The position numbers were made by a program. Below, piece after piece: positions 31,731-40,700 of a stretch of 64,000 nt of DNA (its first letter is position 1; every line of letters starts with the position of its first letter). Source of the stretch: Elusimicrobiota bacterium. Lineage in GTDB: Bacteria; Elusimicrobiota; Elusimicrobia; UBA1565. The stretch is from positions 64,001 to 128,000 of the forward strand of contig JBDRPD010000054.1 in NCBI GenBank assembly GCA_043827405.1, read 5' to 3'.

Positions 31731-34700
31731 CTGGGCTTGGTCAAGCGCGCGTCCGAGACCGAGCGCATGGCGCGCCGGGTGAAGGATTCGGGCGGGGTGA
31801 CGGTCGTTCCGGCGCTGACCGGTCTCGGCGCTCCGTACTGGGCGCCGGATGCCCGCGGCATGATCACGGGTCTGACGCGCGGAACGACGCGGGAGCATAT
31901 CGTGCGCGCGACCCTGGAATCGATCGCCCAGCAGACGGCGGACGTCATCGAACGCTTCGGCGGACGTCTGCGCGAGCTCAAGGTCGACGGCGGAGCGACG
32001 GCCAATCGCTTCCTGATGCAGTTCCAGGCGGATATCCTGGGTATCCCTATTTTGCTGTCCGACATCGCCGAATCCACCGCCTGGGGCGCGGCCGCGCTGG
32101 CCGGCCGGAGCGCCGGAGTATGGGCCGCGACGAAGAAGAGAAAGTATCGAACCTTCAAGCCGCGCCTGAGCCGGGCTCGGGCGCGCGAGCTGCGCGCGCG
32201 GTGGAAGCGCGAGATTAGCCGGCTGCTTCTGGTACAATAAATTATGCGCTTCTTCATCGGAGGCCCCAGTGGACGTTCTTGAGTACGCGAAGAGCCGAGA
32301 GACGGATATGGTCAAGCTCTACAAAAACTTGGCCGAGCAGTCTTCTCAAGAGTCCATACGTAAAGTGTTCCTGGCCTTGGCCGAGGAAGAGGCCGAGCAG
32401 TTTTACCTGATGGCGGCGCGCAACGAGGAGAATCCCGTTCTGCAGGAAGTATTTCGCTGGCTGGCCAAGCAGGAGGGGCGGCACCGGGAGGTGCTGGGCC
32501 GGGCCAGGGACCGCATCCGCTGAGCGCTGTGGACTCCCTTTCTCCTGCGCGGCGGCCATCCCGCGCCGCCGAAGGTCTCTCGTCGTTCATGAAAAATGCT
32601 TTAATACACGTCCCCAGGCCATCCTCAGTAATCCGGTCAATCCCGCATACTGCTGCGTAGGCCGCAAACGATGCCGGGGCGCGTATTATCGCCGGAAAAT
32701 CGGTGGAAACCGGGTTTATGACACAGGGCAGAAAGAAAGAGCATCTGAGAATTTGCGCCGAGATGGACGTCGAATTCCAGCATAAAACGACATTGCTGGA
32801 GCATGTCCATCCGGTCCATGCCGCCTTGGCGGAGATCTCAATCGATGAGATAGACACCGGGACGAGCTTCATGGGACGGAAGCTGCGCGCGCCGCTGCTG
32901 ATCAGCGCCATGAGCGGCGGGGTTACGCACGCTCGCGACCTCAACCGGGACCTGGCGCGCGCGGCGCAAAAGCTCGGTATCGGTTTCTGTCTGGGCAGCC
33001 AGCGTCCCATGCTGGAAAACCCGAAGCTGATCGGCACCTATCAGGTCCGCCGCTTCGCTCCCGACGTGCCGATTCTGGGAAATATCGGCGTTCAGCAGGC
33101 CGCCGCGGCGAAGCCCAGGGACATCGAGCGGTTGGTGACCTGTATCGAGGCCGACGGTTTGGCGGTGCATCTCAACCCGGCGCAGGAGCTGAGTCAGCTC
33201 GAGGGCGACCGGCGCTTTCCGGACGGCTACCGTACCCTGAAGATTCTCGCCAAGCGCCTGCCCGGCCGGATCATGGTCAAGGAGACCGGCTGCGGCATCT
33301 CGCGCGAGGTCGCCCGGAAGCTTAAGCGGGCCGGCATCCGGGTCGTGGATACGGCCGGCGCCGGCGGCACCTCGTGGACCCGGGTGGAGCATCTGCGCAA
33401 CGGAGTGAAGCCCGCGGCGCGCGGCTGGCTCGACGAATGGGGCATCCCGACGGCGGCGTCCCTCATGGACGTGGCCCCGCTGGGGCTTAAGGTCGCGGCA
33501 TCGGGCGGGCTGCGCAGCGGCTACGACGCGGCCAAGTGTCTGATGCTGGGCGCCGACGTCTGCGGCATGGCGCTGCCGGTCCTGCGCGCCTATATGCGGG
33601 GAGGTTATCCCGCCGTACTCGCTTTTTTCGAACAGGTCCGGCGCGAGCTCAAGACCGTCATGCTGCTGGTCGGCGCCAAGGATATCCCCTCGCTCAAGAA
33701 ACATAAGCCGGTAATCACTGGAGAACTCGCGGAATGGGCAACCCGGACAAGATAAACCAGCCGAACGATCCGAAAGAAGAGAAGCCGCAGCATCGCACCT
33801 CGCGGCTGTCCGGCTTCTATAAGCTCGACGTCTCGGAACGGCTGGACAAGCTCGACGAATGGCTTCCCCTTTCAAACGAGGAAAAGTGGATGCTCAAGAA
33901 GGAGACGCTGTCGCTCGAGAAGGCCAATATGATGATCGAGAACGTCATCGGCATTTTCGGGCTTCCCCTCGGTCTCGCGGTCAACTTTCGCATCAACGGC
34001 AAGGACTACGTCATCCCGATGGCGGTGGAAGAGACGTCGATCGTCGCCGCCGCCGGCAATATGGCCAAGCTTATCCGCGAGAACGGCGATCTCACGGCCT
34101 CCTCCAAGCGCGCCATAATGGAAGGGCAGATTCAGCTGTTCAACGTCGACCGTATCGAGACCGCCGTCAAGAAGATTGAGAAGGCGAAGGAACGGCTCCT
34201 GCGGGTAGCCAACCAGCAGGACCGGATGCTGGTCCGGCTGGGCGGCGGGGCCAAGGATCTTTACTGCCGCAAGATCTCCACCGAAAGCGGCCCCATGCTC
34301 ATCGTCCATCTGGCCGTCGCGGTGGTCGACGCCATGGGCGCCAACGCCGTCAACACCATGGTGGAGACGCTGGGACCCATTATCGCGGAGATCGCACAGG
34401 GAGAGCTGCTGTGTCAGATCATCACCAACCTCTGCGATAAGTCGCTGATCCAGGCACGTTTCGAGATCGGCGTCGACTGTCTCGCGAAGGGGGATTTCTC
34501 CGGGCTGCAGGTCGCGGAGCGGATCGTGAAGGAGTATCACTTCGCCGACGCCGACCCTTACCGCGCCGCGACGCATAACAAGGGCGTCATGAACGGTATC
34601 GACGGGATCGTCATCGCCACCGGCAACGACTGGCGCGCCGTCGAGGCGGCCGCCCACGCCTACGCCGCCCGTACCGGCCGCTATCGGTCCCTGACCAAGT

Positions 34701-37700: not shown

Positions 37701-40700
37701 CAATCCCGCCGCGGTCGAATGGGCGCTGGCGACGCGGTTCCAGGCCAATACCGACCTGCTGCTGCTCGACGATCAGCCGGGCAGCTCGCTTGATCCCTCC
37801 GTGCATCACGAGAGCGGCAAGGGCAGCCGGGGCTCGAAGCTCGGGCTCGACGCCACGATTCGCGAGGGCGGCGAACCGTCGCTGTTCAAGAAGATAACCG
37901 AGTGAACCTGTCCGCGGAAGAACAAGATGTCCTCGACGGCAAGCAGGGCGCCGGGGCCGCCAAGGCCATGGAGATTCTGCGGGCGCTGGGCCGCATCAGC
38001 GGGGCGCCGGATATGGTCCGGGTCGGCTCAGTGCAGGTCTCGGGCGTAAGCTACAAGAATATCGGCGAGCATGGGCTCGCCTTTCTCAATGAGTGGGCGG
38101 CCCAAGGCTCCAAGGCGGCGGTACCCGCTTTCATGAATCCCGGCGGCGCCGACCGCAAGCTGTGGAAGGCCTTGGGCTTTCCGGCGGATTTCGTCGAAAA
38201 ACAGGCGCAGGTGGTCGCGGCGCTGGAGGGCCTGGGCGTGCAGCCGACCTTGACCTGCACGCCGTACCATATCGGCATCAAGCCGCAGCCCGGCGAGCAT
38301 GTCGCCTGGGCGGAGTCCTCGGCGGTCGTGTTTGCGAACTCGGTGCTCGGGGCCCGGACCAACCGGGAGGGCGGACCGTCGGCGATCGCCGCGGCGCTGA
38401 CCGGGCGGACGCCCCGGCACGGCCTGCATACCGACGAGGGGCGGCGGCCTACCCGCGTCGTTCAGGTGAAATGCGGGGTCAAGACGAGCGCCGATGCCGG
38501 CGCGCTCGGCTACCTGATCGGCCGCGTCCTGGCGCAGGACAGCAAGGGCGGAATCCCGTATATCGCGGGGGTCGAGCCGCCGGAAGGAGCGGCGCGGCTG
38601 GCTTGGCTTAAAGCGCTCGGCGCCGGGATGGCCGCTTCCGGTTCGGTAGGCCTGTATCACCTGGAGGGCGTGACGCCCGAAGCGGCCGCCGCGGGGGCCG
38701 GGTTCGCCGACGCCGCGCCGGAGCGTACGGAGATCGTCTCGCTGGCGGAAGGCTATCGTAATCTGAACGCCAAACAGGGCGCTATCGACGTGGTGGCCCT
38801 CGGCTGCCCGCATGCCTCGCCCGAAGAGCTGGAGCATGTTGTGCGGCTGCTGCGCGGCCGCCGGACCAAGCTCCCGCTGTGGATTTTCGTGGCGGAAGGC
38901 GTGCGCCGGGAGGCGCAGGCCGCGGGCGTCGCGGCGGAGCTCGAGAAGTCGGGAGCGGTCCTGCTCGCCGACACCTGCCTGGTGGTGGCGCCGCTCAAGG
39001 AGCTCGGGATCCGGGGCGCGGTGACCAACTCGGCCAAGATGGCATTTTATCTGCCGTCGCATCACGGCGTAGGCGTGCGCTTCGGCTCGACGGAAGAAGG
39101 CGTTGAAACCGCGGTCGCCGGGGAGTGGAAATACGATGCCTGAGAAGCGGCTGGAGGGGCGGGTGATCTTCGGCGGCGCCGCCGCGGGCCGCGTCTTGAA
39201 GTCCGAGCAGCCTTTGGGCTTTTTCGGCCATATCGATCCCGAGACCGGCGTTTACCGGGAAGCGGGGCATCCGCTGGACGGCCGGCTGCTCAGCGGCCGG
39301 GTGCTGGTCTTTCCGCGGGGCAAAGGCAGCACGGTGGGCTCCTACATCATCTACGCGCTGCGCAAGACCGGCAAGGCGCCCGCGGCGATGATCATCGGCG
39401 AATGCGATACCATCGTCGCCGTCGGCGCCATCATCGGCGAGATCCCCGCGCTGGACAGCGTCGACCTTTCATGCCTCAAGGACGGCGACGCGGTGCGGGT
39501 GCGGGACGGGGAGGTTTTCATTGAGCAAGCTTAGCGTCTTCGTCAAGCTGGGCGGGTCGTTTATCACCGACAAGAATGTGGCCGACAGCCTGGCCGGGCC
39601 GCGCATTGAGACCGCCGCGCGCATGATCGGCGAGGCGCTGGGGCAGAGCGAAATGTCCTTGGTGCTCGGCCACGGCGCCGGCTCGTACGGCCACATCCTG
39701 GCGCAGAAGTACGATGCCGTGCGGGGCGTGCATCCCGAGTTGGGCTGGGAAGGCTACTACAAGATCCGCGAGTCGATGACCGAGATGAATTTGCGTTTCG
39801 TGCGCCACTGCGGCGCCGGCGGGCTGCATCCCGTGACGATCTCGCCGCATGCCGTGGCGGCGGCGGCGGACGGCCGGCTGGAGCGCATCGATACGCGCAA
39901 TATCTCCGAGCTGCTTAAGCAAGGGCAGATTCCGCTGCTGCACGGCGATATCGTCCCCGACCGCGTGCGCGGCTTCACTATAGCCTCTACCGAAGCCCTG
40001 CTCGCGGGGCTGGCCGAGCATATGCGCTTCGACCGGGTGGTGATGATCAGCGATACCGTCGGCGTGCTTGACGAGAAGGGCCGGACGATCGAGATGCTCG
40101 ACGACGGCGGGTTCGCCGCGGCCGCGGAGCATATCGGCGGAGCCGGCGCGCCCGACGTTACCGGCGGGATGCGCCGGAAGGTGGAGCAGCTCTTTTCGCT
40201 GATCCGCGCCGGCCGTATCGGCGAGGCGCGTATTACCACCTGCGCTGAAGAGCCCGAGAACCTGCGGCGGGCGATCCTCGGCGACGGCGGCGGCGGAACG
40301 CTGCTGCAGGCCTAACGGAGGAGAATATGCCCTGTCTTGAGATCACCCTGCCGAAGACCGACCGCGAGACCAAGGCGAAACTCGCGGACTGCCTGACCGA
40401 GGCCTTCGCGAGCAGCACCCTGTTCGGCAAGGAGATATTCGGCGTGCGGTTCTTCGAGTACGGTCCCGGCGAGGCGGCGGTCGGCGGCCGGCTGGTGGAC
40501 GGCGATGAAAAGAGCCCCTATCTGCACGCCCTGCTGTACTGTCCCCGGATTACGCGCTCGACCAAACAGAAGCTGGCGGAAGCCCTCACGGAAGCTTTTG
40601 TTCGGGGTACGGGCCGGGAGGACTGGAGGCCGGTTATCCATATCTGCGAGCACCCCTACGACAATGTCGCGGTGGAGGGGCGGGTCTTGTCCGAGGCCTT

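Follow-up and report, generated by a model that had tools for sequence, protein, structure and literature searches.

The 64,000-nt stretch analysed here (the window) belonged to G000, the genome of a groundwater Elusimicrobiota bacterium (97.97% complete, 108 contigs), and contained an eight-gene operon that was probably (about 0.85) the only recognisable route to IPP/DMAPP in this host, the cassette having been gained laterally and the MEP pathway lost thereafter. The pathway reading of the initial annotation stood for the HMG-CoA reductase, the lower half of the archaeal (anhydromevalonate-phosphate) route and the loss of MEP, and fell for completeness, uniqueness and transfer from archaea (see below). 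This known pathway, published before for one bacterial phylum, is now predicted in three further phyla: Elusimicrobiota, the KSB1 phylum, and Planctomycetota. Read directly from sequence were the genes present, their residues, the emptied MEP sites, the distribution, and the tree shapes; together they provide a within-order series for the replacement of an essential pathway, and carriers in a second phylum divide in the same way.

Operon layout and enzyme assignments

The operon was composed of eight same-strand intact ORFs at 32718–40315 (Table 1), each ending in a single terminal stop, and its junctions were, in order, −22, +11, −10, +1, −4, −8, and −14 nt, in agreement with the earlier description of eight same-strand genes with gaps of ≤12 nt or overlaps. 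The operon GC3 was host-like (0.81–0.87), the promoter scan upstream gave nothing exceeding chance, and neither mobility genes nor tRNA were found among the 28 window ORFs scanned. Gene order was kept in 15/15 relatives (50–76% identity), all eight genes being present in 13 and seven in two whose contigs stopped before IDI-2. The tautomerase-like gene probably shares the operon transcript in G000, as locally does the Ap4A phosphorylase-like gene; both are outside the conserved cassette and had no match in the loci of 15 relatives. The terminator-like hairpin closing the gene run was weak evidence, because the scan found 11 sites versus 6.7 ± 2.7 in shuffles.

Table 1. Features of the operon and the genes following it (positions in the window)
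Feature	Position	Strand	Supporting match
Type-2 isopentenyl-diphosphate isomerase (IDI-2), 345 aa	32718..33755	+	TIGR02151 345 bits, cut-off 281
Class II HMG-CoA reductase, 454 aa	33734..35098	+	TIGR00532 401 bits, cut-off 260
Mevalonate kinase (MVK), 324 aa	35110..36084	+	TIGR00549 246 bits, cut-off 163
UbiX flavin prenyltransferase (prFMN for AMPD), 184 aa	36075..36629	+	TIGR00421 201 bits, cut-off 109
UbiD-family decarboxylase, putative anhydromevalonate-phosphate decarboxylase (AMPD), 424 aa	36631..37905	+	TIGR00148 302 bits, cut-off 245
Phosphomevalonate dehydratase (PMDh) large subunit (PMDh-L), AcnX type IIb-like, 413 aa	37902..39143	+	Pfam PF04412
PMDh small subunit (PMDh-S), 132 aa	39136..39534	+	Pfam PF01989 (AcnX swivel); 7CNR chain B 142 bits
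Isopentenyl-phosphate kinase (IPK), 264 aa	39521..40315	+	NF040647 147 bits, cut-off 120
Tautomerase-like gene	40327..40749	+	PF01361; 11 nt past IPK
Ap4A phosphorylase-like gene	40751..41593	+	PF19327 + PF09830
Terminator-like hairpin + T-run closing the gene run	41572..41608	+	10 pairs, strongest of 11 sites

The two-subunit PMDh of G000 shared three cluster cysteines and the MVA5P-binding residues with Thermococcus kodakarensis PMDh (7CNR/7CNS). PMDh-L scored 303 bits against 7CNR versus 201–206 bits against type I AcnX; it had cluster cysteines C119, C302, and C359 (sites A, 1, and B) and Val with no Cys at site C, and this pattern was invariant across 11 aligned sequences and fitted an AcnX type IIb dehydratase. 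The MVA5P ligands of TkAcnX (large subunit: G48, V49, S50, N53, N79, E129, S130, K361, and Y365; small subunit: S62, T63, and V64; PMC8184944) were identical at 12/12 positions, corresponding to G48-V49-S50, N53, N79, E138, S139, K379, and Y383 in PMDh-L and the retained Ser-Thr-Val of KGSTV in PMDh-S; a further distinguishing position, Leu27 of the TkAcnX small subunit, aligned with Phe. The UbiD-family decarboxylase was adjacent to UbiX and grouped with UbiD genes adjoining archaeal and Chloroflexota PMDh; its substrate as AMPD was deduced from gene context only, because no AMPD-specific model or structure matched and its best PDB matches were other UbiD enzymes.

The catalytic motifs and profile of the HMG-CoA reductase were those of class II (only 48 bits against class I profile TIGR00533), and its best PDB matches were 6DIO (403 bits) and 1QAX (396 bits), which we take to be the Delftia acidovorans and Pseudomonas mevalonii class II reductases. 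The cofactor-helix Asp was common to these two and the G000 enzyme and occurred in 16/16 reductase sequences checked, but unlike them the G000 reductase belonged to a biosynthetic operon, together with lower-pathway enzymes of archaeal type. Its cofactor helix D-R-M-L-V-R-L kept D1, L4, and L7 and had Met at position 3, this position being Met or Thr here versus Val/Leu in the NADH-type motif Dx(V/L)xxxL (given in a section of PMC13488460), to which the helix is close; the G000 reductase is predicted to use NADH, probably. MVK and IPK had mevalonate kinases (6MDE and 4HAC) and IPKs (3K4O and 3LL9), respectively, as best PDB matches. G000 had four GHMP kinases, namely MVK, a degenerate IspE, and heptose-kinase-like and homoserine-kinase-like proteins (the last two named by eye), and no PMK, DMD, or PMD was found among them.

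All enzyme activities and reaction directions are predictions: the class II, probably NADH-using reductase would convert HMG-CoA to mevalonate, MVK would yield mevalonate 5-phosphate, the two-subunit Fe-S dehydratase would form trans-anhydromevalonate 5-phosphate, UbiD would decarboxylate the latter with prFMN provided by UbiX, and IPK and IDI-2 would then yield IPP and DMAPP, respectively. These would feed undecaprenyl, farnesyl, and hopanoid synthesis, and the isoprenoid users uppS, farnesyl-PP synthase, squalene-hopene cyclase, and hpnH were encoded in G000. MVK, PMDh, UbiD/UbiX, IPK, and IDI-2 were common to G000 and the archaeal MVA pathway (Aeropyrum pernix, Methanosarcina mazei, and T. 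kodakarensis), while G000 differed in its bacterial host, its single eight-gene operon, and its class II reductase. Archaeal PMDh is oxygen-sensitive, a limit on the ATP-saving pathway in Escherichia coli stated in an excerpt of PMC12547664, whereas cytochrome bd and a heme-copper oxidase were encoded in the G000 genome. A compact, GC-rich bacterial operon whose host has terminal oxidases is also a natural candidate for use of that pathway in E. coli.

MEP loss and distribution of the operon

No match to IspG, DXR, IspH, or IspF was found in G000 at its 97.97% completeness, DXS and IspD gave weak matches only (best E 1e-11 and 7e-6, versus 1e-107 and 1e-63 in an MEP-positive relative), and tblastn of relatives' MEP proteins against G000 recovered transketolase-like genes only. 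The old sites were closed within contigs: (i) the dxr site was empty, with cdsA and rseP about 50 nt apart; (ii) the ispD/F site was closed to 2 nt; and (iii) C66:46–72 kb contained no dxs, ispG, or ispH. The ispE gene remained at its old place before glmU, but its PAKVNL and GYH motifs were gone, and its GC3 was 0.67 versus 0.80–0.82 in its neighbours. An internal stop flagged in ispE was rejected: the TAA was the natural stop, and the frame was open for about 298 codons. With six genes not found and ispE degenerate, MEP loss in G000 can be taken as real, and the initial annotation, which had recognised no MEP gene except a weak IspE-like kinase, was borne out.

The order-level survey included 101 genomes (G000 among them; 16 operon carriers and 85 non-carriers), of which 10 had the operon only, 6 had both operon and IspH, 80 had IspH only, and 5 had neither, giving the same shape as earlier counts over 41 genomes. 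Excluded from these counts were (i) weak IPK homologues of G011, G312, G400, and G425 (31–32%, other contexts, long separate branch) and (ii) distant AcnX of G587 and G601 (34–35%). IspG, IspH, and DXR were missing from the same 10/16 carriers and retained in the other six; IspH was missing in 10/16 carriers versus 5/85 non-carriers, and IspG in the KSB1 phylum, with the same split, in 6/10 carriers versus 1/18 hand-picked non-carriers, tallies that overstate significance because related genomes were counted as separate cases and kin are not independent. The stages in the order comprised MEP only, both pathways, partial remains (G100 kept ispD and ispE), degenerate ispE, and fragments, so the suggestion that relatives were caught at different stages held for both the two-pathway and the replaced states. 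Cassette gain appears to have been repeatedly followed by loss of the old MEP pathway: the cassette, shared with planctomycetes, would spread laterally within one Elusimicrobiota order, its gain would render the MEP genes dispensable, and these would be deleted, with ispE decaying last.

Source of HMG-CoA and alternative function

HMG-CoA synthase (HMGS) was not found in G000 by Pfam, tblastn, or custom profile, as the initial annotation had cautioned, nor were its archaeal-type thiolase/DUF35 partners in this 98% complete bin, and the operon pathway could not be called complete as first proposed. The archaeal MVA pathway has an archaeal-type HMGS with thiolase and DUF35, and so did relatives of G000 (TIGR00748, 520 bits): this trio occurred in 10/16 carriers and its HMGS in 0/85 non-carriers, FabH matches in G092, G099, and G100 being excluded. 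The second HMGS copy in G010 and in G017 was considered and rejected as a selenocysteine protein, the flagged TGA being the natural stop.

Leucine degradation is the lead candidate for HMG-CoA supply in G000, held tentatively at a little short of even odds: acyl-CoA dehydrogenase, MCC with shared AccB/AccC, and methylglutaconyl-CoA hydratase would produce HMG-CoA, for which the reductase would compete with HMG-CoA lyase. G000 harboured liuB-liuC-liuE (C39:133840–137193), a second liuC-like gene (C83:243334), an acyl-CoA dehydrogenase (C50:29389) 62–66% identical to those adjoining liuB in G005 and G095, and, at a distance of 13 kb, 2-oxoacid dehydrogenase E1 genes, and the HMGS trio sat within liu clusters in G010, G013, G022, G095, and KSB1-phylum G444. 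Trypanosomes feed mevalonate from leucine, whose breakdown yields HMG-CoA ahead of the reductase as proposed for G000, but according to portions of PMC5993337 their shunt supplements HMGS, while the G000 route would be the sole entry. Several points weigh against a leucine source: liuD (dedicated MCC alpha) was not found and AccC sharing is an assumption; no equivalog model scored above its cut-off for liuB, liuC, or the dehydrogenase, whose names come from similarity and context; HMG-CoA would be lost to the lyase; the liu cluster was not operon-specific, because MEP-using relatives also had it; and 4/5 lyase-positive, HMGS-negative carriers belonged to one genus.

The missing liuD, with accC as the sole biotin carboxylase, would also fit a trio that the organism possesses and the assembly lacks, leaving an ordinary, complete acetyl-CoA-fed archaeal MVA route, which is possible with the odds running against it. 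The trio was present in 8/10 MEP-less carriers, formed one block with liuD in G013, G022, and G095, and could have escaped a bin in 108 contigs; at only about 2.6 kb and variably placed in relatives, it is beyond the reach of synteny. A search for unbinned HMGS in public contigs at 80% likeness to the G013 trio–liu region recovered short pieces from many organisms and was weak because G000's own orthologues were 71–72% identical in DNA. Arguing for genuine absence, beside the completeness of the bin, an HMG-CoA lyase orthologue was kept in both HMGS-less, MEP-less genomes (G000 and G100) and in 0/8 HMGS-positive MEP-less carriers (one had a 36% paralogue), G099 (99%) shared the liu cluster of its congener G095 but lacked the trio there, the site being contiguous, and G015 (100%) and G019 also paired liuB-liuC-liuE with one biotin carboxylase. 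On the leucine reading, it may be proposed, speculatively and at well under even odds, that G000 and G100, without MEP or HMGS, make all isoprenoids, hopanoids included, from leucine-derived HMG-CoA via a laterally mobile cassette, and that, given the aerobic oxidases encoded in G000, the Fe-S dehydratase may tolerate oxygen better than archaeal enzymes.

A non-isoprenoid role of the operon, in mevalonate catabolism or in hydroxy-acid breakdown by the AcnX–UbiD pair, is very improbable. Mevalonate catabolism, as in P. mevalonii, also consists of a class II NADH-type reductase plus HMG-CoA lyase, and G000, in which HMGS was not found, had a class II reductase, probably of this type, and HMG-CoA lyases; the name of TIGR00532 also contains 'degradative'. 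Bacterial AcnX types with unknown function do exist (as described in part of PMC10040528), but two kinases and IDI-2 in the same operon, the kept phosphate-binding residues, the co-inheritance of HMGS by carriers, and the lack of another IPP source in G000 all point to isoprenoid synthesis.

Probable origin and transfer of the cassette

Outside homologues were represented by the best 80 of 588 stretches and the best 120 of 7638 proteins, and trees were unrooted and mostly 'quick' LG+G4. Among the matches listed, Planctomycetota and the KSB1 phylum supplied the nearest homologues of PMDh-L, AMPD, IPK, HMG-CoA reductase, and the relatives' HMGS; two planctomycetes carried the same cassette. The KSB1 phylum was the sister group in the unrooted trees of PMDh-L, AMPD, and IPK (SH-aLRT 97, 100, and 88, respectively) and of the main HMGS (support 86/98). 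The claim that each enzyme was most like archaeal ones was correct against Swiss-Prot, but in the wider search the nearest relatives were bacterial.

Passage of the operon straight from an archaeon into this lineage is improbable. PMDh, AMPD, IPK, and the HMGS trio belonged to archaeal-type families, some archaeal loci shared the partial order MVK-UbiX-AMPD-PMDhL-PMDhS (L132), and L132 branched near the bacterial clade; set against this were the KSB1 sister positions, the bacterial identity of all named matches among the best 120 each for PMDh-L and HMG-CoA reductase, and a PMDh-L identity of 41–50% to archaea versus 63–66% to planctomycetes among the matches listed. With Planctomycetota/KSB1 homologues nearest and a class II reductase whose PDB-nearest enzymes were proteobacterial-type, neither transfer from archaea as initially proposed nor direct donation by an archaeon finds support; PMDh, AMPD, and IPK are likely to stem ultimately from archaea, as far as unrooted trees can tell. 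Assembly of the cassette probably took place in bacteria: in the KSB1 phylum, these genes occurred in identical order, split into two blocks. The route is suggested to spread by lateral transfer from bacterium to bacterium and not by repeated archaeal import, the direction of transfer being inferred.

The pathway had also been described as unique to archaea, which was already contradicted by Candidatus Promineifilum breve (Chloroflexota), likewise reported as a bacterium with the archaeal route but from a different phylum (Kanno et al. 2024, PMC11337835). In the Chloroflexota loci examined, no cluster contained more than five of these genes, versus eight in G000. P. breve reportedly swapped one MVA variant for another, unlike G000, in which MEP was replaced. 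In the PMDh-L tree, Chloroflexota genes formed separate clades, and one Methanomicrobia sequence branched beside the KSB1+Elusimicrobiota clade.

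Gene content of the operon and identity of its enzymes

The operon of G000 (the Elusimicrobiota genome studied) comprised eight ORFs on one strand with junctions of -22 to +11 nt, and NCBIfam and Pfam named them as type 2 IPP isomerase (IDI-2), class II HMG-CoA reductase (HMGR), mevalonate kinase (MVK), UbiX, UbiD (the AMPD candidate), AcnX large and small subunits (PMDh-L and PMDh-S), and isopentenyl-phosphate kinase (IPK), which bore out the eight-gene same-strand operon of the initial annotation. Six of the eight genes exceeded curated NCBIfam cut-offs, and both AcnX subunits exceeded those of Pfam. 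The operon continued gaplessly at its 3' side into a tautomerase-like gene and an Ap4A phosphorylase-like gene, neither of which had a counterpart in the loci of the 15 relatives. The assignment of G000 to Elusimicrobiota follows the initial annotation and the names carried by the closest proteins.

The best solved match of AcnX was Thermococcus 7CNR (303 bits, vs. 201 to 206 bits for hydroxyproline dehydratases). All 3 cluster cysteines and all 12 mevalonate-phosphate ligand positions listed in PMC8184944 were identical in G000, and in the small subunit Phe aligned with Leu27. AcnX of G000 lacked the type I site-C cysteine, and PMDh is described without this cysteine in a passage of PMC10040528. 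UbiD matched no specific reference enzyme, and its substrate assignment thus rests on context.

The pathway was called unique to archaea in the abstract of PMC10040528 and in the initial annotation; this claim is outdated, as Kanno et al. 2024 (as cited in PMC13001223) reported the archaeal pathway in Ca. Promineifilum breve. PMC11052028 and PMC9385802 treat this variant as archaeal. Titles and abstract beginnings listed it in neither Elusimicrobiota nor the phylum of a KSB1 MAG (hereafter the KSB1 phylum), and trees or supplements of Kanno 2024 and Hoshino & Villanueva 2023 may list them; "Elusimicrob" and "KSB1" did not occur in the main text of PMC6107057, nor "Elusimicrob" in that of PMC13001223. 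As judged from sequence, the operon is a real and well-supported case of a known pathway, found here in further lineages of bacteria, with chemistry that is not new. The operon-containing sequencing runs were groundwater metagenomes, one of which may be the source of G000. G000 encoded cytochrome bd plus a heme-copper oxidase subunit I at 663 bits, slightly below the 671 cut-off; PMC12547664 states that the pathway saves ATP and that PMDh is sensitive to oxygen.

Coordinates of the operon and of associated features
Feature	Genome	Position	Remark
Eight-gene operon	G000	window:32718-40315	
Small rubrerythrin-like ORF	G000	window:32269-32523	directly upstream of operon; unmatched in relatives' loci
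Full-length degenerate ispE	G000	L104:5714-6608 (C93:35713-36607)	before glmU
Second HMG-CoA-lyase-like gene	G000	L105:2660-3616 (C45)	35% to liuE; above NF004283 cut-off
Second cis-prenyltransferase gene	G022	L021:12680-13501	near operon; 67% identical to that of G100, two families
Second cis-prenyltransferase gene	G100	L024:15178-15999	near operon
Second HMGS-thiolase-DUF35 trio	G010	L069:6997-9564	52-54% to main copy (both genomes)
Second HMGS-thiolase-DUF35 trio	G017	L070:7-2580	
Ten-gene cassette	G442	L119:796-13257	operon genes without UbiX
Ten-gene cassette	G615	L242:2387-13272	operon genes without UbiX

Loss of the MEP pathway and the source of HMG-CoA

IPP is needed by the cell: uppS, farnesyl-PP synthase, squalene-hopene cyclase, and hpnH were all above cut-offs in G000. 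The loss of the MEP pathway proposed earlier held up: IspG, DXR, IspH, and IspF had zero matches in G000, DXS and IspD gave weak cross-family matches only, and, ranked above this profile absence, the former MEP sites were closed within contigs: (i) the genes on either side of dxr in G095 and G099, cdsA and rseP, were spaced by ~50 nt in G000; (ii) no more than 2 nt separated the gene that precedes ispD/F in G099 and G100 from the unrelated gene behind it; and (iii) the hopanoid-to-orn stretch, holding dxs, ispG, and ispH in relatives, was uninterrupted with no remnant. The ispE of G000 had an open frame with 48% identity to that of G099, low GC3, and neither the PAKVNL nor the GYH motif; it could be in decay or have been retained for another role. 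G067 and G022 had ispE as pieces only, and G100 had intact ispE and ispD. No classical or haloarchaeal lower-pathway enzyme was found among the four GHMP kinases of G000.

The most interesting point was how G000 obtains HMG-CoA. Archaeal-type HMG-CoA synthase (HMGS, TIGR00748), thiolase, and DUF35 form a trio, and such trios work as a complex. HMGS with its two partners was present in 10/16 carriers of the operon and 0/85 non-carriers, and the trio was not found in G000 by Pfam, tblastn, and a custom profile. In four carriers, and likewise in one genome of the KSB1 phylum, the trio was embedded in a leucine-degradation cluster.

HMG-CoA might be fed from leucine, a tentative reading held at a probability of roughly 0.4: G000 carried liuB-liuC-HMG-CoA lyase together with one further liuC-like gene, one further lyase-like gene, and a candidate isovaleryl-CoA dehydrogenase, and a lyase orthologue of at least 50% was found in 5/6 carriers without HMGS (four of these five from one genus) vs. 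1/10 with it. However, a dedicated MCC alpha subunit was not found in G000, although two complete MEP-using relatives had the same make-up, and HMG-CoA lyase would compete. That HMGS is present in the organism but unassembled was held to be only slightly less probable than the leucine feed, and one or two misses are expected by chance among ten incomplete bins. The leucine-degradation genes of G000, the lyase distribution, the placement of the trio in leucine-degradation clusters, and the cluster of G099, which lacked the trio, favour true absence of HMGS and a leucine feed. Other sources of HMG-CoA take the remaining probability.

Distribution and probable movement within the order

PMDh-L was found in 16/101 genomes of the order, spread over three families (f1 to f3). 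Gene order was kept in 15/15 relatives, among which two contigs stopped before IDI-2, two genomes had insertions between UbiX and AMPD, and IDI-2 or HMGR matches were split in two. All nine strong IPK matches among 401 sampled genomes of the phylum fell in this order. IspH was missing in 15/101 genomes, namely 10 carriers plus 5 non-carriers (four of the latter being ≤80% complete); the same 10 carriers also lacked IspG and DXR, and the other six had all three. The operon occupied the dxr site in G095 and G099, between cdsA and dxr, and its neighbours varied elsewhere.

In the concatenated tree of the eight proteins, carriers of f1, f2, and f3 fell into one group (100/99). Monophyly was rejected by AU tests both for f1 carriers (p = 6e-47) and for f3 carriers (p = 2e-45); the rpoB tree (25 genomes, G022 and G093 omitted) separated the families except for G072. 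Since families separated by rpoB were mixed in the operon tree, the operon probably moved laterally within the order; one ancient acquisition, followed by many losses and combined with hidden paralogy, is a less favoured possibility. The evidence was good for repeated replacement of the MEP pathway and for spread between bacteria. G072 (L269), labelled f3, had an operon grouping with f3 genus g23 and an rpoB grouping with f1, a conflict read as bin mixing or transfer.

Relatives of the operon outside the phylum

In a planctomycete MAG (GTDB scan, best 80 of 588 stretches), IDI-2, HMGR, MVK, AMPD, PMDh-L, PMDh-S, and IPK (49-69%) kept the relative order of G000, with HMGS-thiolase-DUF35 head to head ahead of them. 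A second planctomycete had the same ten genes (2/20 genomes of that taxonomic order), a self-contained cassette, and both planctomycetes (G442 and G615) retained IspG. PMDh-L (46-55%) was present in 10/167 KSB1-phylum genomes. Here the genes were split between two blocks that retained the internal gene order: HMGR-MVK-UbiX(-AMPD), in both of the genomes examined, and PMDhL-PMDhS-IPK, at eight loci. IspG was missing in 6/10 of these carriers vs. 1/18 hand-picked non-carriers (completeness unstated). The KSB1-phylum loci were L237-L247 (G443, G444, G570, G571, G577, G579, G580, and G581).

Elusimicrobiota and planctomycete sequences formed one clade with the KSB1 phylum as sister in PMDh-L (97), AMPD (100), and IPK (88) trees, and the MVK tree left this sister-group relation open. 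Among the best 120 matches each, named PMDh-L and HMGR matches were all bacterial, and class II HMGR is bacteria-typical according to a passage of PMC6107057. The trees speak against a direct archaeal donor, and the transfer from archaea earlier proposed was not borne out; being unrooted and mostly quick searches, they do not fix the direction of transfer. One Methanomicrobia sequence was close to the Elusimicrobiota/planctomycete/KSB1 clade. The second trio copies grouped with planctomycete and Chloroflexota copies.

A second Chloroflexota PMDh/AMPD clade (L143, L145, L169, L181, L187, L191, L192, and L130) was placed among archaea beside a Promethearchaeota sequence, a position that suggests a separate acquisition in Chloroflexota. 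Distant IPK-like kinases (31-32%) were present at L208-L211 (G425, G312, G011, and G400); at the two loci inspected, no other mevalonate gene lay within 1.5 kb, and one kinase adjoined a glycosyltransferase.
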